DNA of 64,000 nt, taken from a virus (lineage: Duplodnaviria > Caudoviricetes). The position numbers were made by a program, and so were the translations under genes. The notes under the pieces are model-generated. The model saw only the letters and a list, made by a program, of their open reading frames with translations. It did no database searches and was not told the origin of the DNA. The stretch lies in IMG/VR virus record IMGVR_UViG_3300045594_000145, positions 32,001-96,000 of that record; one strand, 5' to 3'. Below are positions 3,976-29,572 of this stretch, in pieces; the first letter of the stretch is position 1, and each line of letters begins with the position of its first letter.

Positions 3976-5412
3976 TTAATTATAATTATCTTCTAAAATT
4001 CCAACCGCGTCTCCTTCTCGTTCTGACTCTTCTAATTCGTCATAACACTCCGGGCAAATTAAATCTCCATTTTCTCTCTCAATTAAAGAATCTCTATGAT
4101 ATCTTTCCCCACAAGAACCACATTCGTAAATATCTAAGCAAGTATCACACCAGAAGCCATTATCATCATAATATTCGTTACTATAACTAATTCGATCACC
4201 ACAGCCAAAACAGTACGCGCAATCCCTAGGGTTATATGAATAACTCTTACTATTACCCTCTTTAAAATTCTCTGTTGTTGCCATTAATTTGCATGGCCCA
4301 TCGTCATAGGCAACTCTTAAGTTGAAATAAGCTTGGATATCTTTTTTAGATACGTCTTTGCTATATTTATTATTAGTTAATTCATTTACGAATTTAACGA
4401 TTTCCTCTGAGAAAGCTAAATTTTGGATAGGATAGTTTTTATCAATAGTTATGGCACTTTCATCTGCAAATACCCATGCCCTAATTATTTTATTACTTAC
4501 AAGATTATCTTCCTTGTCTCCATCTGCGTCTATTAATCTATATGGCTTATCCGTTTTTAAATAAGCTAAAAAGACGTTGTGTGCAGTAAGCATTGATAAT
4601 GAATGAACATAATTACATCCAGTTGGCATCATAGAAAAGCAACTATTCCATCCCAAAGAGTTATCAGAACAAGTAATAAATTCAAATGGATCAATGCTTA
4701 TACATAAAGTACCCTTTAGTGTACTAGATCCTTCTAGTTGCGCTCCATACCCTCCAATTTGATCAATATATCCTCTGCATTGCTTTGCAGTCTTAGGGGT
4801 TATATAATTGATATTTTCTAATAAATCAATAATTTGATTAACTACTTTCGCGCATCGAGAATGCTTTTGAATAGTTATGCTCTTATGCTCCCCAGATTTG
4901 GAGACATAATTTATCTTTTCTGCCTTTGGTGTATTTAATAAAGATTCACCTAAATCACAAAAAGATGACTGAAGCCAGTCTTCTTTTACACACCACAAAG
5001 TTATTAAAACCATATCTAAATTATTATCTTTTACTTCTAACGCATCTTTTAAAATTTTACATATTTTTATAATATTGTCTGTATAACTCTTATATATATT
5101 AATCATTCTATCATCTTTTAATTCATAATTATATCCCATCTTTAAGATGTCTTCTTTTGTTATTTGTAAGTTTATTTCTTTTTCATAAGTGAATTTATCC
5201 TTAAAGATCTCTGGGATTAAAAAATCACTTTTTGCTTCTGCATAATCATCAAGATATTCTCTTGGAAAACCGTCTCCAGATCTTTCTAGATGGTTTTCAC
5301 TCTGAACAAATTTTAAATATCTGTTCATACGGTCATAAAACAAAGATTGAGCATCATCGGTTGAAAGATGATGCTCTTTAATTATTGGATTACAATTATT
5401 TATCTCGCTCAT
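3976..5412 (-). CDS. hypothetical phage protein with C-terminal Zn fingers
   Basis: 478 aa; ISIDPFEFITCS..GWNSC motif; four CxxC pairs at C-terminus. Confidence 0.7.
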   Translation of the reverse strand: MSEINNCNPIIKEHHLSTDDAQSLFYDRMNRYLKFVQSENHLERSGDGFPREYLDDYAEAKSDFLIPEIFKDKFTYEKEINLQITKEDILKMGYNYELKDDRMINIYKSYTDNIIKICKILKDALEVKDNNLDMVLITLWCVKEDWLQSSFCDLGESLLNTPKAEKINYVSKSGEHKSITIQKHSRCAKVVNQIIDLLENINYITPKTAKQCRGYIDQIGGYGAQLEGSSTLKGTLCISIDPFEFITCSDNSLGWNSCFSMMPTGCNYVHSLSMLTAHNVFLAYLKTDKPYRLIDADGDKEDNLVSNKIIRAWVFADESAITIDKNYPIQNLAFSEEIVKFVNELTNNKYSKDVSKKDIQAYFNLRVAYDDGPCKLMATTENFKEGNSKSYSYNPRDCAYCFGCGDRISYSNEYYDDNGFWCDTCLDIYECGSCGERYHRDSLIERENGDLICPECYDELEESEREGDAVGILEDNYN

Positions 5413-5849
5413 TATTCTCCCTCATATTCTAATTTAAAATCTTTAAGATTATATTTAGCTTCAATTTTTTGCCAAGAACCACCATAACAAGTTTTAGTGC
5501 TACCACTTAAATTTCTCTTTATCGTGGCTTTTATATTTGACTCATTTTTATCTGGATATAGTTCTTTAAGAACTTTTACTGCTTCGTCGATATCCTTTGC
5601 GGCTATCTTAGTTGTTCCCTTTTTATAGATATATCCAATTTGTACGATAATTTCAGGATTTTTTTGAATATTGCCTAAATAATCAATATGTACTCCTTTT
5701 AAACGACAAAGTTCCATACTTTTGTCAAATTTATCTGCAACTTCATTTCCAGTCATCTTGCAAATCTTTGCCATGTATCCCACGGAAGCCGCAGAGGAAA
5801 TAAGCTTTACGGTTTTGTTGTCATAGTTGATCACACCCAAAAATTTCAT
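5412..5849 (-). CDS. hypothetical protein, NUMOD1-like DNA-binding C-terminus
   Basis: IKRNLSGSTKTCYGGSW resembles homing-endonuclease DNA-binding modules. Confidence 0.5.
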   Translation of the reverse strand: MKFLGVINYDNKTVKLISSAASVGYMAKICKMTGNEVADKFDKSMELCRLKGVHIDYLGNIQKNPEIIVQIGYIYKKGTTKIAAKDIDEAVKVLKELYPDKNESNIKATIKRNLSGSTKTCYGGSWQKIEAKYNLKDFKLEYEGE

Positions 5850-6842: not shown

Positions 6843-6878
6843 AAAAAAATAACTGCAAGACTCTATCATGCAGTTATT
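6843..6878 (-). terminator. intrinsic terminator ending the large ncRNA
   Basis: AAUAACUGCA...UGCAGUUAUU hairpin followed by U-tract on minus strand. Confidence 0.75.
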
Positions 6879-7860
6879 AATACATAGGTTATAGCCTGTA
6901 TTCAGAATTGCACTGAATGTTATCTACTAAGACAGACAGTTTAGCAGGATTATCGCACCTGCTAGGCGACTTAGGCTGAGAAAATTGACCTTCATTTACT
7001 TACATCCTTGCTCGGTTGGCCGCGCAATTTCACACAACTGTTTTACAATTGTAGTAAGTATCGACACTGGTTTTGTGAAAACCAGCAAACTCTTACTATA
7101 TCCTCAGATAACTTTCCTTTCCTAACAGCTCCCCTTGGAAGGGTTCGATAGCTCCCGCCACCTAAGTTAAATTAGTAATTGTACTTGTTTGCCCTATACC
7201 TTGCGAGCTAGTAGCATCTGTATGTTACAACAGAATAAGTCGATATGTCAGAATATAGTCGAGCACGCTTTTGCTTTTGTTAGAAAACTTTTCAATATCC
7301 AATTGATTTTTCATATTTTCATAAAAGTTTCGCGTAATAACGATTTATTAGTCGATGTGGTGCTCGTTCGGTATCCCACTCTTTTGGAGTGGATCCAACC
7401 AACACCGCCTTCCTTTCGCGTCACCTACTCAGTTTATTTGCTGTTTACAAGTGATGTTTCAATCGACTCGTTGCAAATAATGAAGCCCGCACTTAAGTTT
7501 GACGAACTTTGCACGAACAACCTCTATCCGTAATCGTATATTTCTATACTTATTTACCGGCTACGAACCGATAACTGCTCTAATAACTATAAAATCTGCA
7601 CGAAGTTATAGCTAGCACTACGCATAATATAGAGTCTTTCTGTGGAAGCATTACACTCGCAAAGCACGTTGAACTTTGCTTTGGCCCCATTACTGGGGTT
7701 ATCCTTGGCTACGGCTACGAAGACTAGCCGCTGAGAATTTAGCTTATTGACCGAAGTCATAATTTCTAGGCAATACCACGTAGAGGTATCTCAATCATTG
7801 CCCGACTGGCTTGCGCCAGCTTCTTTTGTCGTTTCTATTAATAAATTAAGTTTTCCTTAA
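6850..7860 (-). ncRNA. large structured ncRNA, ROOL/GOLLD class (ROOL favoured)
   Basis: ~1 kb with no credible ORF between a sigma-A promoter and a terminator; dense hairpins; motifs CUGAGUAGG, GGUGUUGG..CCAAAAG..CACCAC, GCAAAAGCGUGC and 3' UCUCAGCC recalled as ROOL-like; near tRNA cluster. Confidence 0.65.
7732..7803 (-). ncRNA. HDV-like (theta-type) ribozyme R7
   Basis: P1 GGGCAAU/AUUGCCU, P2 UGAGAU/AU(U)CUCA, P3 ACC/GGU, L3 UCUACGU, P1.1 CU/AG, P4 with UUCG loop, J4/2 GCUAA. Confidence 0.85.
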
Positions 7861-7871
7861 CTTATATAATA

Positions 7872-7900
7872 ATTATATCATATTTTTTAAAATGAGTCAA
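7872..7900 (-). promoter_or_regulatory. sigma-A promoter of large ncRNA
   Basis: TTGACT-17 nt-TATAAT with TG extension. Confidence 0.8.
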
Positions 7901-9071: not shown

Positions 9072-9117
9072 ATAAGAATCTTTAATAAGAATAACATATT
9101 TTTTAAAAATTGTCAAG

Positions 9118-9190
9118 TGGACACTTTTGGAGTCGAACCAAATTCCAAGGCTCTTCAAACCTCTGCTATAACCGTATCAGCTAAGTGTCC
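9118..9190 (-). tRNA. tRNA-Phe(GAA)
   Basis: GGACACU/AGUGUCC acceptor, UUGAAGA loop, UUCGA T-loop. Confidence 0.85.
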
Positions 9191-9195
9191 ATAAA

Positions 9196-9256
9196 TTTTG
9201 GTATCATGGCTCGAACATGAGATTGCCGACCGTTTTACCTACTAAACTATACCAAA
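9196..9256 (-). ncRNA. tRNA-like RNA lacking an anticodon arm
   Basis: Acceptor UUUGGUA/UACCAAA, D-arm, T-arm UCAUG-UUCGAGC-CAUGA; only 11 nt between D and T arms. Confidence 0.75.
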
Positions 9257-9307
9257 ATATGCTATTTTTATTTTTAAATACAGAATACTGCTATTGAATG
9301 GGAAGAA

Positions 9308-9730
9308 TTAGTCTTTTTCATGCGCCTTGTTATACTCATCTTCAATCTTAACCAGAACCGCTCCAAGACATTGTGGATATAAATATACACGAATGGCAAC
9401 ATCGCAATATTCTGCCCCTTTTTTGATGAGGACACTTCCATCCATTTCAAATTCCTTCAATACATCAAATAACAAATCTAGATTATGGCATAGATATTCT
9501 TCTGCTTGATATGTGTTGAAAGTATAAGAACCAGAACTATTGCCTGTGATACTATCTTCATTTATTACTTCATCGTTTAAATATTCTTCAAGGTCATTAA
9601 AAGTATCATAATCCTCAAAATCAATATTATCTTTTACATACTCTAAGATATCATTCTTTACTGCCTGTTCATAATCATAAGTTTCTGACATAAGACTCTC
9701 CTGTCTATCATAAACCATAAACTTTGTCAA
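9308..9730 (-). CDS. acidic helical protein, Ocr-like DNA-mimic candidate (paralog family A)
   Basis: Very D/E-rich; YDYE..DSITGNSSGSYTF..AEEYL..N..LL motif shared with 20594 ORF. Confidence 0.55.
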   Translation of the reverse strand: MTKFMVYDRQESLMSETYDYEQAVKNDILEYVKDNIDFEDYDTFNDLEEYLNDEVINEDSITGNSSGSYTFNTYQAEEYLCHNLDLLFDVLKEFEMDGSVLIKKGAEYCDVAIRVYLYPQCLGAVLVKIEDEYNKAHEKD

Positions 9731-9752
9731 ACTATTTCATACGATATTTTAG

Positions 9753-9824
9753 TATCCCCACAGAGATTCGAACTCTGATTGTAGGTTTAGAAGACCTATG
9801 CACTCTCCTTTGTCCTGTGAGGAT
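9753..9824 (-). tRNA. tRNA-Arg(UCU)
   Basis: UAGGU-CUUCUAA-ACCUA; full cloverleaf. Confidence 0.85.
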
Positions 9825-9828
9825 ATAA

Positions 9829-9901
9829 GGGTGTCATTCAAGAATCGAACTTGAATAAGATGTTTCACAGACATCCACGCTACCTTTGCGCCAATGACAC
9901 C
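9829..9901 (-). tRNA. tRNA-His(GUG)
   Basis: GAUGU-CUGUGAA-ACAUC; G-1:C73 pair. Confidence 0.85.
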
Positions 9902-9904
9902 AGA

Positions 9905-9978
9905 TGGAGGACGGAGTGAGAGTCGGACTCACGATCTAGGGGTTGCGGCCCTATGCCTTACCGCTTGGCTAACCGTTC
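9905..9978 (-). tRNA. tRNA-Cys(GCA), atypical (C33, acceptor mismatches)
   Basis: UAGGG-CCGCAAC-CCCUA; encoded CCA. Confidence 0.7.
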
Positions 9979-10014
9979 TAGTTTTGAATTAACTACTTTC
10001 TTAAGAAAGTATAG

Positions 10015-10085
10015 TATACGCACTAAGAATTGAACTTGGATTTAGCGCTTATCAGGCGCTCGTTCTACCATTGAACTATGCGTAT
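10015..10085 (-). tRNA. tRNA-Ile(GAU)
   Basis: AUACGCA/UGCGUAU; AGCGC-CUGAUAA-GCGCU. Confidence 0.85.
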
Positions 10086-10091
10086 ATATAA

Positions 10092-10164
10092 TGTTCTGAT
10101 TGGGACTTGAACCCAAAATCTTATTCTTGAGAGGAATACGATTTAACCATTCGTCTACCGCAGC
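10092..10164 (-). tRNA. tRNA-Glu(CUC), weak acceptor stem (possibly pseudo)
   Basis: UAUUC-CUCUCAA-GAAUA; good T-arm; several acceptor mismatches. Confidence 0.6.
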
Positions 10165-10170
10165 AAATAG

Positions 10171-10259
10171 CGCAAACTGCTAGCTTCGATCTCGCGCTAC
10201 GAATAATCGTAGGACGGTTTAGCGAACCGTTGGTTTCAACCAGACTCACCCAAGTTTGC
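10171..10259 (-). tRNA. tRNA-Ser(GCU), C33
   Basis: ACGGU-UCGCUAA-ACCGU; long variable arm; G73. Confidence 0.75.
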
Positions 10260-10263
10260 ATAG

Positions 10264-10345
10264 TCGGTTGCGGGAGACTTGAACTCCCACGTCTTTCAAC
10301 ATTAGCTTCTAAGGCTAACGCGTCTGCCAGTTCCGCCAGCAACCG
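10264..10345 (-). tRNA. tRNA-Leu(UAG)
   Basis: UUAGC-CUUAGAA-GCUAA; Leu-type D-arm and variable arm. Confidence 0.9.
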
Positions 10346-10351
10346 ATAACT

Positions 10352-10423
10352 TGTGGAGTAATGAGATCGAACCGATATTATCTGTTTGGTAAACAGACTT
10401 ACTAGCCGTTGTAAGACCTCCAC
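10352..10423 (-). tRNA. atypical tRNA with ACC anticodon (Gly), weak T-stem
   Basis: UCUGU-UUACCAA-ACAGA; GUGGAG/CUCCAC acceptor; T-stem poorly paired. Confidence 0.55.
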
Positions 10424-10436
10424 AATTTTGAAGCAG

Positions 10437-10507
10437 TCTCCGCAGAATGAATCGAACATTCGTCTCTCGGTCCCAGGCCGAGTGGTCTACCATTAACCTA
10501 CACAGAG
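10437..10507 (-). tRNA. tRNA-Pro(UGG), C33
   Basis: CUCGG-CCUGGGA-CCGAG; C1-G72, A73. Confidence 0.8.
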
Positions 10508-10511
10508 ATAG

Positions 10512-10585
10512 TGGAAGATAAAGAGATCGAATCTTTAGTCTATCGGTTATGGGCCGAGTGCTTTATCCTATTAAGCTAATCTTCC
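10512..10585 (-). tRNA. tRNA-Met/Ile2(CAU), C33
   Basis: GGAAGAU/AUCUUCC; loop CCCAUAA. Confidence 0.8.
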
Positions 10586-10621
10586 AATAATTGCATATTT
10601 TATAGCGTTATGCTACGCTAA

Positions 10622-10694
10622 GGCCAAGTAGTGGAATTGAACCACTAACCTCCTACTTACGAAGTAGTTGCTCTACCGATTGAGCTAAATTGGC
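10622..10694 (-). tRNA. tRNA-Thr(CGU)
   Basis: loop UUCGUAA; canonical D and T arms. Confidence 0.85.
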
Positions 10695-10705
10695 AATTTG
10701 ATAAG

Positions 10706-10785
10706 TCCTTGAAGTGAGGTTCGAACTCACACGCTCTCGCAGTGGATTTTAAGTCCACTTTGTCTGCCAGTTGCAACATCCAAGG
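10706..10785 (-). tRNA. tRNA-Leu(UAA)
   Basis: GUGGA-CUUAAAA-UCCAC; variable arm present. Confidence 0.85.
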
Positions 10786-10790
10786 AGTAG

Positions 10791-10864
10791 TGCGCGACGT
10801 AGAACTCGAATCTACAATAACCTATTTTTGAGACAGGCTCCTCTGCCAGTTGGGACAGCCGCGC
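10791..10864 (-). tRNA. tRNA-Leu(CAA) with short variable loop
   Basis: CCUGU-CUCAAAA-AUAGG; variable region only UUAUU. Confidence 0.8.
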
Positions 10865-10906
10865 AAGATTTTAAATTTATTTAATTCTTTCTTTGTTTAT
10901 GTATAT

Positions 10907-10935
10907 ATTATATCATTATATTAGGAGATTGTCAA
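10907..10935 (-). promoter_or_regulatory. sigma-A promoter of tRNA block
   Basis: TTGACA-17-TATAAT. Confidence 0.8.
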
Positions 10936-11023
10936 GCTTTCTCTTTTAAAAATGAGGACAAAAGACGGAAGAATTACCTACGTCTTTCTGGTATCGTTCC
11001 TACACTTGGCAGGACAATGAAAT

Positions 11024-11079
11024 TAGAGGCAGCCAGACTCGAACTGACATATTGACTCTTACCCTTGAGCTATACCTCT
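11024..11079 (-). ncRNA. 56-nt tRNA-like RNA with no anticodon arm
   Basis: AGAGGUA/UGCCUCU acceptor, GCUC-AAGGGUAA-GAGU D-arm, 6-nt linker, GUCAG-UUCGAGU-CUGGC T-arm. Confidence 0.8.
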
Positions 11080-11186
11080 TCTGTTTGATCGTGCACAATC
11101 CTCCACAGATGGAGTGCCGCTTAGTAAATAAAAGAACAAGCAGGCTTATTCAGTCAGATGGCACTGCCATCTATTACATGCGGCAA

Positions 11187-11306
11187 TTTGTTCGGTAAGG
11201 ATTTGCACCTTACAAGCATAGTCATTGCTTTTTCAACTTTAATTAGAGTGATAGCTCTATGCGGTGCTCACTGGACACCCGTGTTTACCTATTCCGCCAC
11301 GAACAA
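11187..11306 (-). ncRNA. Leu-like tRNA scaffold with very long variable arm
   Basis: UUGUUCG/CGAACAA acceptor, GGCGGAAUAGGUAAAC D-arm, GGUGU-CCAGUGA-GCACC, ~48-nt arm closed by GCAUAG/CUAUGC, UGCAAAU T-loop. Confidence 0.7.
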
Positions 11307-11311
11307 TTTAA

Positions 11312-11530
11312 TTACTTACTCAATTTAATATCTTCAATCTGGGCACGAGTTTCAAGCACATATAAATACTGCCCCATGATTGATGCCTGCTTTCTCAATA
11401 AATCAATTGGGCATGTAGGTGTAAACTCTAACTTTCCCGCATCATATTTAACAAGCATCTTATGTAATTTCTGGTACTTATCATCTAAATCTTTATATTC
11501 CTTCACAAATCTAACTTTGTAATCTTCCAT
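11312..11530 (-). CDS. conserved small phage protein
   Basis: LL.KQ..IM.QYL.VLE.RA motif; RBS AAGGAG. Confidence 0.75.
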   Translation of the reverse strand: MEDYKVRFVKEYKDLDDKYQKLHKMLVKYDAGKLEFTPTCPIDLLRKQASIMGQYLYVLETRAQIEDIKLSK

Positions 11531-11544
11531 GTTATTCTCCTTTC

Positions 11545-11943
11545 TTATAGTCCTAATTCCTTTGGTGTATAATCACATTCTCTTTTCATGCCAATGAACT
11601 TAGTCCCTCTATCAAAAGGAAATAGAAGAATATTTTCTCCGCCTTCTGTTTCAATATCAATGTTCTCACGATTGGCGTTATATAGTTTGCAAATTGAAAT
11701 TATTTTTCTATCTGCTTGACTGATTACGGTTTTTAGATAATCATGTTCTTCCTGCGTTAAGATTGGTTCTGGCTTAATAGGCTCCCATGCATTAGGCGAT
11801 ATTTCTGTTAATTTACAGATACCATTATTTCTGCCAATCAAGCAATTATCACATCTATCTTGTTTTTCACAACAATTCCGTATTGTTTCGATAGCTTCAT
11901 TCAATTTTTTGATTTCATTTTCCATATTATTTTCCTCTTTCAA
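11545..11943 (-). CDS. hypothetical protein (Cys motif plus shared C-terminal domain)
   Basis: CCEKQDRCDNC; LTQEEHDYL...YTPKELGL. Confidence 0.7.
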   Translation of the reverse strand: MKEENNMENEIKKLNEAIETIRNCCEKQDRCDNCLIGRNNGICKLTEISPNAWEPIKPEPILTQEEHDYLKTVISQADRKIISICKLYNANRENIDIETEGGENILLFPFDRGTKFIGMKRECDYTPKELGL

Positions 11944-12097
11944 TATTATCTTATCATTTTTAAATTAATTGTCTATAATTTGTAACCATTTTCGCAGTTA
12001 GCCTAAAGCCCGTTTTGCTAGATACCGATGGCCGAAGCCATAGAGTCCTACCATCAAACGATGACCTAATATTAAGTGGAGGTGTGGGGCAATGCTC

Positions 12098-12727
12098 CTA
12101 TAAATATTCAAAATGATAACCCAAATAGCTTGTTTTGTTATTATATCCAGTAAGAGACTCACTTATCTTTTTCCCTACATTATCCACTTTTTTGGTTCTT
12201 GTATAGTTGTTATCTATCAACCACTGAGCACATTCAACTACAGAGGAAAACTCTTTTTCTAATTCTTTAACTTTAATTGGTTTTGCGTGAATTTCTGCAC
12301 TACTTTTTATCGGAATATTATTTTGAATTAATATATCATGAACGCTATCTGTAGATATTCCTAATTTCGTGGCTGTTTTTCTTATATTCTGTTCTTCTTT
12401 ATAAGTTTTAATAACAAGATCTCTATCAATATAAGGTTTTCCATCCCCGCCTTTTGTTGCGTTATACCCATTTCCATAAGAGCCGTATCGACTAATCCAA
12501 TAGATTTCTCTTTCTTCAGCTTCTGAATCTTCACATTGTTCTACCTCTTCAACTGAAAAATTTTCAACACCATATTTGTTCATGGCAGAATAAAGAGGCC
12601 GGTGTTCCATCCGACATTTCTTATAATCTTGACAATGTTCTTTAAATCTTTTTTCTATCGTGCCCAGAGTTTTTCCGATATAAATTTTGCCATTAATTGA
12701 ATTTGTTATTTTATAAATATATGCCAC
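12098..12727 (-). CDS. free-standing GIY-YIG homing endonuclease
   Basis: YIYKITNSINGKIYIGKT..RFKEH..E..W..GYN..GGDG; C-terminal HTH/NUMOD; GTG start with AAGGAG. Confidence 0.9.
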   Translation of the reverse strand: MAYIYKITNSINGKIYIGKTLGTIEKRFKEHCQDYKKCRMEHRPLYSAMNKYGVENFSVEEVEQCEDSEAEEREIYWISRYGSYGNGYNATKGGDGKPYIDRDLVIKTYKEEQNIRKTATKLGISTDSVHDILIQNNIPIKSSAEIHAKPIKVKELEKEFSSVVECAQWLIDNNYTRTKKVDNVGKKISESLTGYNNKTSYLGYHFEYL

Positions 12728-12789
12728 GATGACTAACTCCTTTTCTATAAAAACTCTATAGAAATTGGTAAAGTAATATCACAATAATT

Positions 12790-12828
12790 CTTGTAATCTT
12801 GCTCGCCTACCAATTACGACACATGCCG
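12790..12828 (-). pseudogene. 5' half of a tRNA truncated after the anticodon loop
   Basis: CGGCAUG-UG-UCGUAAUUGGUAGGCGA D-arm, then no 3' half; abuts the GIY-YIG leader. Confidence 0.5.
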
Positions 12829-12833
12829 AATAG

Positions 12834-12904
12834 TAGTGATTATAGGTAATGCTCCTATGTCTACCGCTTATCAGGCGATTGCTCTACTTTTGAGCTAAAT
12901 CACT
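12834..12904 (-). tRNA. tRNA-Ile(GAU), atypical T-loop
   Basis: AUCGC-CUGAUAA-GCGGU; T-loop AGCAUUA. Confidence 0.8.
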
Positions 12905-12908
12905 AAAG

Positions 12909-12979
12909 AGTTCTATATCGGGATTGAACCGATGCTATCTGCTTGGAGGGCAGATGTACTACCATTATACGAATAGAAC
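12909..12979 (-). tRNA. tRNA-Gly(UCC), C33
   Basis: UCUGC-CCUCCAA-GCAGA; U73. Confidence 0.85.
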
Positions 12980-12980
12980 A

Positions 12981-13054
12981 TGGCTGGCTCTAAGTGAATT
13001 GAACACTTATACTCTCCTTAACAGGGAGGAGTTCTACCATTGAACTAAGAGCCA
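12981..13054 (-). tRNA. tRNA-Asn(GUU)
   Basis: loop CUGUUAA; encoded GCCA end. Confidence 0.85.
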
Positions 13055-13175
13055 ATATTAAGCACTATCGCAGTACCCGCGTCCCTTGCTATTATTGATA
13101 GCGCCGGAGACAGCTGATTTTTTAAACGTCGCGACCGAATCATCCTAGATGTTAGACGGTCTATTCCAGACGTAG

Positions 13176-13246
13176 CACAGGAGCAAGGATTTGAACCTCG
13201 ATAAGCAGTTTTGGAGACTGCCGTCCTGCCGTTGGACGACTCCTAT
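13176..13246 (-). tRNA. tRNA-Trp(CCA)
   Basis: GCAGU-CUCCAAA-ACUGC; G73. Confidence 0.9.
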
Positions 13247-13251
13247 ATAAG

Positions 13252-13326
13252 CCTTCTCTGAGAGAGTTGAACTCTCAACCTCTTCGTTCGTAGCGAAGCC
13301 GTCTATCCAATTGACTATAAGAGAAG
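13252..13326 (-). tRNA. tRNA-Arg(ACG)
   Basis: CUUCG-CUACGAA-CGAAG. Confidence 0.8.
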
Positions 13327-13332
13327 ATAATA

Positions 13333-13403
13333 AGCCGGCTGGGAGAGTTGAACTCACATTTACAGCTTACAAGGCAGTTGGTCTACCGTTAATCTAAGCC
13401 GGC
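13333..13403 (-). tRNA. tRNA-Thr(UGU)
   Basis: GCCGGCU/AGCCGGC; loop CUUGUAA. Confidence 0.8.
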
Positions 13404-13407
13404 ATAG

Positions 13408-13480
13408 CACGCTCATAGAGATTTGAACTCTAATTATGCGCTTAGAAGGCGCATGCCCTATCCAATTAGACTATAAGCGT
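13408..13480 (-). tRNA. tRNA-Arg(UCU), second copy
   Basis: UGCGC-CUUCUAA-GCGCA. Confidence 0.9.
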
Positions 13481-13484
13481 ATAG

Positions 13485-13557
13485 TTGCGTGAGGCCGGAA
13501 TTGCACCGGCGACCTCTTGGTTATGAGCCAAGCGAGCTACTACTGCTCCACTCCGCG
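13485..13557 (-). tRNA. initiator-type tRNA-fMet(CAU)
   Basis: CGCGGAGUGGAGCAG start, C1xA72 mismatch, loop CUCAUAA. Confidence 0.85.
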
Positions 13558-13832
13558 ATAAGAGATAATATTAAAGAAGAAAACTCTTTCCTTACTATAT
13601 AATATTATCATAAATCTATGAAAGTGTCAAGAAACACTTTCTGTCATCTTTTGTTTCAATCTGAACTTCGGTTCTGCTGATGACTTACCGATACACGTAG
13701 TAAAACTACAATTTGTGAACGTCACTTCTATTCACTTGCGCCTGTCGTTTAAAGATGGCGCTGACGCCGCAAAACTCTTTTACGGAGAACTAGTGCATGG
13801 GTTTATAAGGTTTTCCTTCCTTTACTATATAT

Positions 13833-17625: not shown

Positions 17626-18285
17626 TCACTTCTCGCAGAAGTCACAAACTTTAACCTTAGTGACAATGCGGCGCCCTCTGCGGTCACGCAATTCAAGAAT
17701 AGGCTTACAGACAAGGCCTTCCATCACTAAAGAAGGATCCTCAGCAACAAGAGAAGTAGGCTTTGTCTTGACAAAAGCAATAGCTTCAGCTAGTGTCGCA
17801 GAAGGAAGTACAACTGGGGCCGCAGATATACCAAATTTAGTGGCAACATCTTCAACATCCTGCCGAGAAAGGTATAGGTCGCCCTCAGGGAAATATACAT
17901 CAAAGAGCGCAAAGCCGCAAGAGTCGTGTAAATATCTTCCTCCACCCTTTTGAATCTTCGCCCCATAACCTTCTCCAAAGAGAATAACCTGAGTCGAGCC
18001 AAAGACTTGCTCAAAGAGTTCCTCGGTGTTAGAGTCTCCAAAAGTAGAAGTCAAGTAGAAAACTAGATTAGAAGGAAGTTGCGCCCTGTCAGTGTGTCCC
18101 GCAAAAGATACTCGATGCCCATCCCAGATAACTCTGGTATTAGTTCCGTCAATTTTTTCAGTGCAACAGAATGGCAAGTCTTTAATAAACTCAAGTTCCT
18201 CAGAACGATATGCGCCCTCTATTAACCTCTTAGTCCCATCTTCCGCTCTGCGGAATGGAGTTTCTATCTTTTGATATTCAATCAT
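17626..18285 (-). CDS. ATP-dependent RNA ligase (Rnl2-like nucleotidyltransferase)
   Basis: motif I TEKIDGTN, LFGEGYG, FALFDV, MEGLV, TKVK. Confidence 0.8.
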   Translation of the reverse strand: MIEYQKIETPFRRAEDGTKRLIEGAYRSEELEFIKDLPFCCTEKIDGTNTRVIWDGHRVSFAGHTDRAQLPSNLVFYLTSTFGDSNTEELFEQVFGSTQVILFGEGYGAKIQKGGGRYLHDSCGFALFDVYFPEGDLYLSRQDVEDVATKFGISAAPVVLPSATLAEAIAFVKTKPTSLVAEDPSLVMEGLVCKPILELRDRRGRRIVTKVKVCDFCEK

Positions 18286-21124: not shown

Positions 21125-21415
21125 TTAGTTGTCGGCCTTCAAATTATAAATAGGATATAAGTGATCAAGAACCTCCGCAGTAGGCGCGATTAATTCTTCA
21201 ATCTCTGCGGCGTCCTTATAGGCATCTGGGGCTTCGTCTAAAGTATTGGCAGAAACAGAGGTAGTAACAATATCTTCCATCTGCTCCTTATAGGCATTGA
21301 GATCAATTGTTGCCTTAGCAACTGTTCTACTCATTGCGCGACCCGCGCCATGTGGGGCTGAGCAGTTCCATTCTTCATTCCCTAGACCCCTACAAATTAG
21401 AGTGCCGGCGCGCAT
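21125..21415 (-). pseudogene. rtcB: C-terminal fragment of RtcB RNA ligase
   Basis: GNEEWNCSAPHGAGRAMSR and TLDEAPDAYK are RtcB C-terminal motifs; N-terminal metal-binding region absent; no clear RBS. Confidence 0.8.
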
Positions 21416-27289: not shown

Positions 27290-27374
27290 AGAGAATTGGT
27301 TCTTCTACTTCGGCGGCGAACCGCTTCCTTGAATTAGTAGACTGCGCCGCATAGAGGCTTCTCTTATGCAGTCC
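27290..27374 (-). ncRNA. HDV-like ribozyme R6
   Basis: P1 GGACUGC/GCAGUCU, P2 AGAGAA/UUCUCU, P3 GCC/GGC, L3 UCUAUGC, P1.1 U-A, J4/2 AACCAA. Confidence 0.8.
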
Positions 27375-27544
27375 TAATCAAATCATAATACACATACTTC
27401 TCAGGTATGCCGAGGCTTATTTGCACTGGTCATGACTCCACGCTTATTCGCCATTTCTGCCGCAACCTACTTTCATCGCGATGTCCAGTAAGTTCTTTTG
27501 GTGTAACCATCCTAACAGTAAGGACTGGTAAGATTTGATTGTGA

Positions 27545-27610
27545 TAGATTTAGTTCTCTCGCCCAAGAGCAAGTCCAGCCGCACCCCGTGGAGGTATCTA
27601 ACTTGCGGCC
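27545..27610 (-). ncRNA. HDV-like ribozyme R5
   Basis: P1 GGCCGC/GCGGCU, P2 UAGAU/AUCUA, P3 ACC/GGU, L3 UCCACGG, P1.1 CC/GG, P4 CUCUU/GAGAG, J4/2 AACUAA. Confidence 0.9.
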
Positions 27611-27860
27611 ACCCGCTTATCTTATTGAAAGCGGTAGAAAGTCAGTTTTGCTCTTTGAAAAGCTAAGTCAACCTGCCGCCGCAGGATTTAAAGCGTACGC
27701 AACTCTTCTTTTTGGTTAAGAGAGGTATTGACGAGAGAACCGCCCCACGTCTGGGGACTTAGTGGCTTAAGCTTTGACTTCGTACAGTGCTACACTAACT
27801 GAAGTCTAGGCGTTAGTATGTCATTACATTGCAGTAATGGATACTTAATCCTTGTATTTT

Positions 27861-27931
27861 GGGTACGTCTGGAATCGAACCAAAACCTTCTCCCCATACA
27901 AGAGGAGATGCACAGCCACGCACTGTATACC
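27861..27931 (-). ncRNA. degenerate tRNA-like domain inside the ribozyme array
   Basis: T-arm UUUGG-UUCGAUU-CCAGA, extended anticodon arm UCUCCUC-UUGUAU-GGGGAGA, partial acceptor GGUAU/GUACC. Confidence 0.6.
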
Positions 27932-27959
27932 GTCAGGGTCTTTCACCAAAGGATTATTT

Positions 27960-28030
27960 GTAGAACTTTGTTTAGTCTGGAGCTACCAAATTGTCCACTC
28001 TCGCCACGGGGAGGCGTCTACTATGAGAGC
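27960..28030 (-). ncRNA. HDV-like ribozyme R4 (bulged P2)
   Basis: P1 GCUCUC/GAGAGU, P3 GCC/GGC, L3 UCCCCGU, P1.1 CC/GG, P2 GUAGAC/GU(U)CUAC, J4/2 CAAA. Confidence 0.65.
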
Positions 28031-28086
28031 ATATAGATTGCGCGGTTACTTACTTGGGCGCGCCAATGAACCGTCTGCCGCAATCT

Positions 28087-28140
28087 TGATGTATTAGTTG
28101 GATATCCAGACACGCCACGAGGAGGCTACATCATGTGTCC
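28087..28140 (-). ncRNA. minimal theta-type ribozyme R3
   Basis: GGACAC-A-UGAUGUA-GCC-UCCUCGU-GGC-GUGUCU-GGAUAUCC-AACUAA-UACAUCA; all HDV elements present. Confidence 0.92.
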
Positions 28141-28608
28141 ATCCCCTTGCCTAGGAGCTACCTAGACAGGAGTTATATGCTTTCCCTAAGCAGGGGCCGA
28201 AGCCCAAGGGGTTAGTTCGCGTGGGAAACTACCAAGGTGCTAAATCCGATCGGTTGCGCGCAATTTTCCTGACACTCTTTAGACTCGCGAGGAAAATTTC
28301 TAATTCTACGAGCAAGCTTTTCTCTTCTTTATACTTGGTGAGCGTTCATCCAAGCGGCGTTTACTTCTTTATCCTCGCATAAACACCAAAACGCGAGTCG
28401 GCCGCAGGCCGTTTATCCTTTAATTTTACCACTAGAGAAGTAGGAATATGGGTATGTTCACTCGCGGAACATACAAGTAGCGCTTTGCTCTAATCACGGG
28501 ATAGAGGTACGAGATCGGCAGTTCCTGTTTACCGCAAAGGTGGAGGTTTAGGGGTGCGTGAACCTGTTTCTTTCAATTATAACGCCCGAAGTTCTAAGAG
28601 GCAGCTTA

Positions 28609-28938
28609 TTACTTATTAGCTTTATAATTCTTCCAGAAATCGGAGTTGACTATAAAGTTATTCATATGGAGATAGAAGTTATCACTATAACCGGTTGCCG
28701 CATTAGTCATGTGATACTGATCAAACCATGCTTCTTCACTGTAACCATTTGCTCTATCGTGGAAAGTAACACGATACACTGAATTGACGCCACTGTGGTC
28801 TTCATACCTATTATCGTATCTTTCATGGATAACCGCGTAGAAGCGACCTTTGTAAACGTCCTTTTCTATTTGTTTATTCATGTGACGAACAGCAGTTCTA
28901 GCGCGTCTTTTATTCGCTCTTACTTTTTTGTCTATCAT
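28609..28938 (-). CDS. hypothetical basic protein embedded in the ribozyme tract
   Basis: start MIDKKV after GAGGGAG RBS and promoter. Confidence 0.7.
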   Translation of the reverse strand: MIDKKVRANKRRARTAVRHMNKQIEKDVYKGRFYAVIHERYDNRYEDHSGVNSVYRVTFHDRANGYSEEAWFDQYHMTNAATGYSDNFYLHMNNFIVNSDFWKNYKANK

Positions 28939-28963
28939 GTTAACTCCCTCACTTTCTATATAT

Positions 28964-28992
28964 ATTATATCATAGATTTTGAAGATTGTCAA
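28964..28992 (-). promoter_or_regulatory. sigma-A promoter driving ORF 28609 and ribozymes R3-R6
   Basis: TTGACA-17-TATAAT with TG extension. Confidence 0.85.
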
Positions 28993-29001
28993 GCAGATGT
29001 T

Positions 29002-29057
29002 TGATGATTCTCAGTAGAAGAGCAGTTGCGCCGCGAGCAGGCGATCATCATGCAACC
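29002..29057 (-). ncRNA. HDV-like ribozyme R2
   Basis: P1 GGUUGC/GCAACU, P2 UGAUGAUC/GA(A)UCAUCA, P3 GCC/GGC, L3 UGCUCGC with compensatory P1.1 GC/GC, J4/2 CUGA. Confidence 0.75.
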
Positions 29058-29109
29058 ATATGGGGAGCCGTCTGGCAAACGACTCCCAGCAAAAGAGAGA
29101 GTATACAAA

Positions 29110-29171
29110 CGAACTTTTAGAACCCGAAGGGGTAGCCGCATTGCCACGTCAAGGCAAGTTCGATAATGCGG
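29110..29171 (-). ncRNA. HDV-like ribozyme R1 (non-canonical C at +1)
   Basis: P1 CCGCAUU/AAUGCGG, P2 CGAACUU/AAGUUCG, P3 GCC/GGC, L3 UUGACGU, P1.1 G-C, P4 ACCC/GGGU, J4/2 UCUAA. Confidence 0.75.
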
Positions 29172-29203
29172 GAGTCAATGCCCCGAAGGGCATCGACCGA
29201 TAA

Positions 29204-29572
29204 TTACTTAGCGAGACTGTAAACCTTAGTCTTCTTCTCGCCGTCTGCTGAAACAGCCTTACCAGCCTTAACAAGAGCTGTTAATGCGCCGATAGCCTGA
29301 GCAGTTGTGATGTTAGCCTTAGCTGCGATATCCTTAGAACCTGCTGGTTCATCAGTCAGAACCGCAAGGACTGCGGCCCTACGAGCTTCAACTTCAGGAT
29401 CAGCCTTACGGACTACTGGGTGAGCCTTACGATACTCCTTAACATGAGCATCCTGTTCGATCTTTGCATCAACCCAAGCTGCCAGTTCAGCATCTGTATT
29501 TCCATTAGCGGTGAGGAAGTCCTTAATCATCTGTAAACCCTTAGTGTTAGTGATTTTTTCTGTCTTTTCCAT
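29204..29572 (-). CDS. small basic protein with C-terminal winged-HTH (paralog of 29798)
   Basis: PEVEARRAAVLAVLT...SKDIA..A.GALTALVKAG; biased codon usage. Confidence 0.8.
   Translation of the reverse strand: MEKTEKITNTKGLQMIKDFLTANGNTDAELAAWVDAKIEQDAHVKEYRKAHPVVRKADPEVEARRAAVLAVLTDEPAGSKDIAAKANITTAQAIGALTALVKAGKAVSADGEKKTKVYSLAK

Follow-up and report, generated by a model that had tools for sequence, protein, structure and literature searches.

What does a self-cleaving ribozyme do for a phage when no transfer RNA (tRNA) stands in front of it? The question is raised by the IMG/VR phage record IMGVR_UViG_3300045594_000145, a sequence of 108,945 base pairs (bp) with terminal repeats, whose bases 32001-96000 form the 64,000-nucleotide (nt) stretch analyzed here and referred to as the window. 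The window contains seven hepatitis delta virus (HDV)-like ribozyme folds, R1 to R7, detected by a structural descriptor on the minus strand only. Each predicted cut falls just downstream of a helix, and comparison of sequences indicates that these upstream stems are probably selected features rather than accidents. The explanation favored here, which is given about an even chance, is that this phage, like many others, uses HDV-like ribozymes to make stem-capped 3' ends.

Theta ribozymes were defined by Kienbeck et al. (2024), whose tRNA-linked examples cut within 1 nt on either side of the tRNA 3' end in 77% of cases. The same study lists 526 non-tRNA occurrences (~42%) with "unknown biological functions" and makes no mention of hairpins, tandem copies, or upstream structure (PMC10879173). 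The tRNA-associated subgroup has its cuts at most 5 nt from a tRNA 3' end, and a tRNA 3' end lies near the cut at none of the seven sites in the window. The window also holds 20 ordinary tRNA genes in two arrays at 9100-13560 on the minus strand, and a ribozyme follows none of them (0/20). The ribozymes of this phage serve only non-tRNA RNAs.

Ribozyme Folds of the Array

The descriptor requires a P1 strand paired with a P1' strand that lies directly after a 3-bp P3 enclosing U....G. and finds seven sites, compared with 0.15 expected per shuffled window. A looser descriptor scanned across the full ~109-kb genome gave no further credible site, and the completeness of the set depends on this loose descriptor together with Rfam. 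All seven folds contain a mismatch-free P1 of 6-7 bp that starts at the cleavage site, a P1' strand directly 3' of P3', a P2/P2' helix of 5-7 bp, and a J4/2 strand with a C just before P2'. In R1-R5 and R7 the loop inside the 3-bp P3, L3, has 7 nt and follows the pattern U-NN-NCGN; in R6 the loop is UCUAUGC, with the conserved C changed to U. P1.1 covaries between CC/GG (R3-R5), GC/GC (R2), and CU/AG (R7), and it is limited to one possible pair in R1 (UG/CU) and R6 (CU/AC). The GC/GC variant is known among published theta ribozymes (PMC10879173). J4/2, whose initial C is the predicted catalytic base, is CUAA(A) in R1, R3, R4, R5, and R7, CCAA in R6, and CUGAGA in R2. Rfam model RF02682 gives weak matches only, to R4 (17.7 bits) and R7 (18.8 bits), with a gathering score of 44. 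P1 fell out of register when 32 ribozymes were aligned with MAFFT.

An earlier note on this DNA, made from the sequence alone, likened the array to tRNA-linked theta ribozymes. The likeness is good in class (minimal HDV-like ribozymes of gut phages) and in geometry, as the cut comes just after a helix in the same way as at tRNA 3' ends, but R3 is the only one of the seven to conform to the theta motif as published. It is letter-identical to isolated theta ribozyme no. 1934 (Kienbeck et al. 2024, Supplementary Data 2) and alone agrees with the P4-less theta descriptor, which asks for G at +1, 5-8 nt in L4, and 4-5 nt in J4/2. R2 comes close but has a 6-nt J4/2, R1 has a C at +1 and a P4, and R4-R7 carry P4 hairpins of 19-40 nt. 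R1 represents a subtype (C at +1, L3 UUGACGU, CU after P1', often P4-less) with ~50 unique examples in IMG/VR. These putative ribozymes lie outside the published theta descriptor, and their carriers are mostly 80-190 kb phages from gut metagenomes.

A Helix Directly Upstream of Every Cut

The central claim of the earlier note, that every cleavage site sits 1-5 nt downstream of a closing stem, is borne out at all seven sites. The gap between the 3' arm of the helix and the cut is 1, 5, 2, 4, 2, 1, and 1 nt for R1 to R7, and all stems that the note quoted are present. It had placed the sites between 27375 and 29200, a range that leaves R7 outside. If P1 of R2-R5 is taken as 7 bp, the tails become 1 nt shorter and still measure 1-4 nt.

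Each of the seven stems is recovered in minimum free energy (MFE) folds of the upstream sequence when a suitable length is folded. The R1 and R2 hairpins have energies of -18.4 kcal/mol (empirical p 0.007) and -15.7 kcal/mol (p 0.025), respectively. The 9-bp stem before R6 is recovered both in the fold of 200 nt upstream and in the fold of the 165-nt module alone; a competing local stem is present as well. In the R3-R4 module, the 5' arm of the closing stem begins at the base right after R3, and in the R5-R6 module it begins 2 nt past R5.

Taken together, the stems exceed chance, as assessed by repeating the same flexible stem search at control positions. Single-site p values range from 0.0005 to 0.23; combined by Fisher's method, they give p 8e-6 with 3000 positions from the genome as controls and 5e-7 with 2029 from the same non-coding stretches. 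Compared by energy, the best closed structures whose ends lie 0-5 nt ahead of the cut differ from 400 controls with a Mann-Whitney p of 6e-5.

Recurrence of the Layout in Other Phages

Two pattern scans of IMG/VR gave 83 unique ribozymes, seven linked to tRNAs and 76 not; with two likely false positives set aside, the non-tRNA ribozymes fall into 56 independent upstream families. A further scan of IMG/VR for a tandem-core pattern returned only G+C-rich coding noise. The seven tRNA-linked ribozymes cut -1 to +4 nt from the tRNA 3' end called by ARAGORN. Across the 56 non-tRNA families, the median energy of closed structures that end 0-5 nt ahead of the cut is -12.0 kcal/mol, versus -6.8 kcal/mol at controls (p 9e-9). 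A tail of at most 5 nt behind a stem of at least 5 bp occurs in 44 of these families, compared with 43% of random positions (p 7e-8) and 42% of shifted controls. A single nucleotide is the most frequent tail length, and tails are 82% A/U against a background of 60%. The base at -1 is A or U in 52 families and G in none.

The order of gene, hairpin, and ribozyme that the earlier note described at R1 is also found elsewhere. The site lies no more than 60 nt past the stop codon of an open reading frame (ORF) in 16 of the 56 families, and the stop codon is 26-70 nt upstream in five more. At R1 itself, the cut is 32 nt past the stop codon of gene 29204-29572, with a hairpin lacking a U-run in between.

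Compensatory changes are seen in one family. In this family A, which has ten members, a weak 5-bp stem is paired in 50 of 50 cells and shows two compensatory and two wobble-changed pairs. The hairpins of the arrays in L183 and L231 differ in sequence and share the same shape, and between L137 and L213 the hairpin is conserved and the type of ribozyme behind it is swapped. L137 also contains a stem-closed module of 141 nt (5384-5524) that lies between two ribozymes and is followed by a GOLLD RNA. Because blastn found no similarity between the cargo RNAs of the window's array and those of L137 or L213, these arrays are treated as analogous and not homologous.

Two further layouts were noted in the same scans. 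In L183 (6300-10900) and L231 (1100-6900), small genes stand in rows, each followed within ~50 nt by an AGC...GCU hairpin, a single A, and then a ribozyme of the C+1 type, which looks like gene-by-gene ribozyme punctuation. In L152 (~1445-1481) and L157 (~1565-1603), GGCACCA forms the end of the helix that precedes the cut and no tRNA is called; ribozyme cleavage would give these RNAs a tRNA-like ACCA 3' end.

Conservation in a Homologous Array

The array has no homologous match in INPHARED or GTDB genomes, and neither of its flanking proteins has relatives in IMG/VR. A metagenome scan yielded one true homologue, the 1.5-kb contig L128, which is 97% identical. The earlier note had looked to homologous arrays for conservation of the stems, and L128 keeps all four of the array stems that it covers. 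The R2 hairpin is identical, A-U replaces a G.U pair of the R1 stem, and the inner stem of the R3-R4 module carries two compensatory changes. The R3 variant of L128 is isolated ribozyme no. 2044 of Kienbeck et al.

Proposed Stem-Capped 3' Ends

Because the layout recurs in dozens of unrelated phages, the ribozymes probably make stem-capped ends for genes and non-coding RNAs. Self-cleavage would release an upstream RNA with a terminal helix, an A/U-rich tail of at most 5 nt, and a 2',3'-cyclic phosphate. Such a defined 3' end would be hard for 3'-to-5' exonucleases to enter, and RNA polymerase would run on. Before RNase R, RNase II, or PNPase can take hold, ~6-10 nt of single strand must be available. 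RNase R attacks duplexes through a 3' overhang (PMC5714204). Cleavage in vivo and stabilization of the upstream fragment by the helix and the cyclic phosphate are both plausible inferences.

In this mechanism, one early transcript would be cut into separate units. These would comprise an mRNA with the R1 hairpin as its end, an mRNA whose long structured 3' untranslated region (UTR) stops at R3, and stem-closed non-coding modules with ends at R2, R4, R5, and R6. Each downstream unit would begin with a compact, knotted ribozyme fold bearing a 5'-OH. R7 would be the exception and would mainly set the 5' end of the GOLLD RNA.

The proposed ends resemble the stem-loop stabilizers of bacterial mRNAs, in which a terminal hairpin and a very short tail block 3' exonucleases and give transcript segments differing lifetimes. 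The phage ends differ in that they are predicted to arise by RNA self-cleavage, would carry a cyclic phosphate, and would need neither termination nor a host RNase. The ribozymes belong to a known class, and the R3 sequence has been published. A description of the rule that the cut follows directly on a helix was not found in literature searches. The rule would offer orphan gut-phage theta ribozymes a job, namely the formation of hairpin-capped 3' ends on mRNAs and non-coding RNAs during ongoing transcription, and it would connect GOLLD and other large phage RNAs with self-cleaving ribozymes. As an engineering part, a hairpin followed by a 54-nt ribozyme could split transcripts into stable pieces.

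Several observations weigh against stem-capped ends as a general product of these ribozymes. The stems before R5 (p 0.25) and R7 (p 0.20) are short and, taken singly, compatible with chance by energy. The 3' arm before R3 is paired in all top folds, yet three C-rich partners are possible for it. The upstream product of R7 is merely a leader. In the wider set, a short tail and a helix are found by MFE at 43% of random positions, so the enrichment is ~1.8-fold rather than absolute, and 12 of the 56 families do not fit. In L128, the predicted catalytic C of R4 is replaced by U, and R1 shows a mismatch in P1 and one additional base in L3. Both stems are nonetheless intact, so L128 does not speak for a coupling between stem and cut; the changes represent either decaying ribozymes or assembly errors. 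L128 R4 (~1430-1500) also carries a 4-nt AACU insertion, and the R1 region lies at ~300-330. A helix that serves as a folding insulator predicts equally short tails and is a live rival.

R7 and the GOLLD RNA

R7 forms the 5' end of a ~930-nt stretch (6850-7900, minus strand) without an ORF of at least 60 amino acids (aa), and it lies ~60 nt from its own promoter (7900-7872). The RNA downstream of R7 matches GOLLD model RF02032 over its full length (positions 1-416 of 416), although its 97.1 bits fall below the Rfam gathering score of 150. The earlier note gave R7 the same 3'-end role as the other sites; for R7 itself, 5'-end processing is the more natural role. Because the upstream product is just a ~60-nt leader and the GOLLD RNA lies downstream, R7 more likely processes the 5' end of the GOLLD RNA than an upstream 3' end. 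The same order of ribozyme and GOLLD RNA is found in L137 and L213, where two more ribozymes precede.

HDV-like ribozymes occur at the 5' ends of retrotransposon RNAs, as in the R2 and L1Tc elements, and the glmS ribozyme leaves a product with a 5'-OH. In these systems the ribozyme processes its co-transcript and remains as the downstream 5' end, which fits phage R7 before GOLLD. They are not known to give a role to an upstream helix, whereas the phage sites mostly look built around an upstream 3' end. Literature searches found no description of a link between GOLLD and ribozymes, and the GOLLD structure paper gives no account of GOLLD processing (PMC12286853).

Alternative Explanations

The alternative that survives best, considered possible though rather unlikely, is that the upstream helix is a folding insulator. 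It would keep the flank from mispairing with P1 or P2 and so favor fast co-transcriptional cleavage, with fragment stability as a by-product. The stems are transcribed ahead of the ribozyme, and the tails are short and A/U-rich and never carry a G at -1 (0/56 families), and would therefore pair less with a G/C-rich P1. A hairpin also precedes R7, despite the leader that is its only upstream product. For the genomic HDV ribozyme, Chadalavada and Bevilacqua reportedly found that upstream structure modulates folding, and RiboJ and other engineered insulators apply the same logic. Insulation does not account for stems that reach over long distances to enclose entire modules and that begin 0-2 nt past the preceding ribozyme, nor for the roughly one third of sites that lie directly after a stop codon. 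Many of the hairpins have energies of -15 to -27 kcal/mol, well beyond what insulation would require. Folding insulation may also act alongside the formation of 3' ends.

A tRNA-style maturation by two cuts is improbable. Ribozyme cleavage would form the 3' end, and a second cut, by RNase P or a different structure-specific enzyme, would fall at the foot of this helix on its 5' side, detaching the ribozyme that precedes it and setting the stem-closed cargo free. It is equally doubtful that the helix and short tail act as a generalized acceptor-stem signal, with the arrays as RNA operons that deliver small RNAs in free, stem-closed form. Such a pathway would cover the stem-closed modules, the long 3' UTR structures, and possibly parts of GOLLD-type loci. 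The geometry equals that of tRNA-linked ribozymes, the closing stems of the R3-R4, R5-R6, and L137 (5384-5524) modules start 0-5 nt after the preceding ribozyme, and the GGCACCA ends of L152 and L157 stand just before the cut. Elements resembling tRNAs also occur in the R4-R5 cargo and in its L137 and L213 analogues. However, a CCA-like tail is present at none of the seven window sites, and the phage genome encodes neither a CCA-adding enzyme nor a 2H phosphoesterase. Moreover, the stems of R1, R2, R5, and R7 are local hairpins and not module-closing helices.

Coincidence, by which a stem could be found near any site because helices abound in structured non-coding RNA, is very improbable. The 43% of random positions that meet the MFE criterion speak for it, as do the single-site p values of 0.03-0.25 for R3, R5, and R7 by the test used and the frequency of 6-bp matches when G.U pairs and loops of up to 200 nt are allowed. 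It is opposed by the combined p against positions in the same non-coding regions, by replication in 56 independent families, and by covariation in the stems. The least probable explanation of all is intrinsic termination at the hairpins, with the ribozymes serving only to clean up read-through: the R1 hairpin does directly follow a stop codon and family L138/L156 has a hairpin and then UUUUU just before the cut, but this terminator-like form with a U-run is seen in only 1 of 56 families, a U-run follows none of the seven stems in the window, none of these is called a minus-strand terminator, and module-closing stems cannot be terminators because they close 52-165 nt. On this point the earlier note, which held that transcription does not end at the stems, is supported.

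Features of the Locus

Table 1. Ribozymes, upstream stems, genes, and RNAs of the array. Positions are those of the window; arms of stems are given in parentheses.
Feature	Position	Strand	First nt past cut	Description
R1 ribozyme	29110..29171	-	29171	HDV-like, C+1 / L3 UUGACGU subtype, CU after P1', P4; found by descriptor
R2 ribozyme	29002..29057	-	29057	Minimal HDV-like, GC/GC P1.1
R3 ribozyme	28087..28140	-	28140	Theta ribozyme
R4 ribozyme	27960..28030	-	28030	HDV-like with P4; weak RF02682 match
R5 ribozyme	27543..27610	-	27610	HDV-like with P4
R6 ribozyme	27290..27374	-	27374	Divergent HDV-like, L3 UCUAUGC, imperfect P1.1; activity uncertain
R7 ribozyme	7731..7803	-	7803	HDV-like with P4, covarying CU/AG P1.1; weak RF02682 match
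R1 upstream hairpin	29173..29198 (29198-29188/29183-29173)	-		11 bp, UUCG loop, 1-nt tail C
R2 upstream hairpin	29063..29087 (29087-29079/29071-29063)	-		9-11 bp, 5-nt tail CAUAU
R3 closing helix CCCCUUG/CAAGGGG	28143..28211 (28211-28205/28149-28143)	-		7 bp around two hairpins, tail AU
R3-R4 module, 52 nt	28035..28086 (28086-28079/28042-28035)	-		8-bp closing stem, 4-nt tail AUAU
R5 upstream hairpin	27613..27634 (27634-27629/27618-27613)	-		6 bp, 2-nt tail GU
R5-R6 module, 165 nt	27376..27540 (27540-27532/27384-27376)	-		9-bp stem AAUCAAAUC/GAUUUGAUU, 1-nt tail A
R7 upstream hairpin	7805..7820 (7820-7815/7810-7805)	-		6 bp, GCAA loop, tail C, in ~60-nt leader
122-aa gene	29204..29572	-		3' UTR holds R1 hairpin and R1; 64-sequence protein cluster; weak PHROG match, winged helix-turn-helix-like
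109-aa Arg-rich ORF between R2 and R3	28609..28938	-		95-member cluster, at least 87% identity
GOLLD RNA 3' domain downstream of R7	6973..7410	-		RF02032, 97.1 bits, E 3.5e-24

Strong promoters precede the 122-aa gene (29736-29708 and 29649-29621) and the 109-aa ORF (28992-28964). R2 comes after a second hairpin, and the 109-aa ORF is followed by a structured tail of 468 nt that ends at R3. Four sites are promoter-proximal, too few for comparison with the other sites.

The R4-R5 module contains a degenerate tRNA-like element (27860-27932, minus strand), which ARAGORN calls as Thr-UGU and which scores below the Rfam tRNA threshold; it ends 250 nt ahead of R5. Analogues in ribozyme-flanked modules lie at L137:4983-5055 and L213:4997-5069, with 40-bit tRNA matches ~250-270 nt before the next cut.

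A 96-aa ORF at 21125-21415 (minus strand) is a C-terminal fragment of RtcB that covers RtcB positions 327-425 only, and no further RtcB pieces were found in the genome. Circularization by RtcB was set aside, as this fragment alone is present. RNA ligases are enriched in ribozyme-bearing phages (Kienbeck et al., PMC10879173), and the present genome encodes one at 17626-18285 of the window (minus strand; PF09414, E 3e-15).

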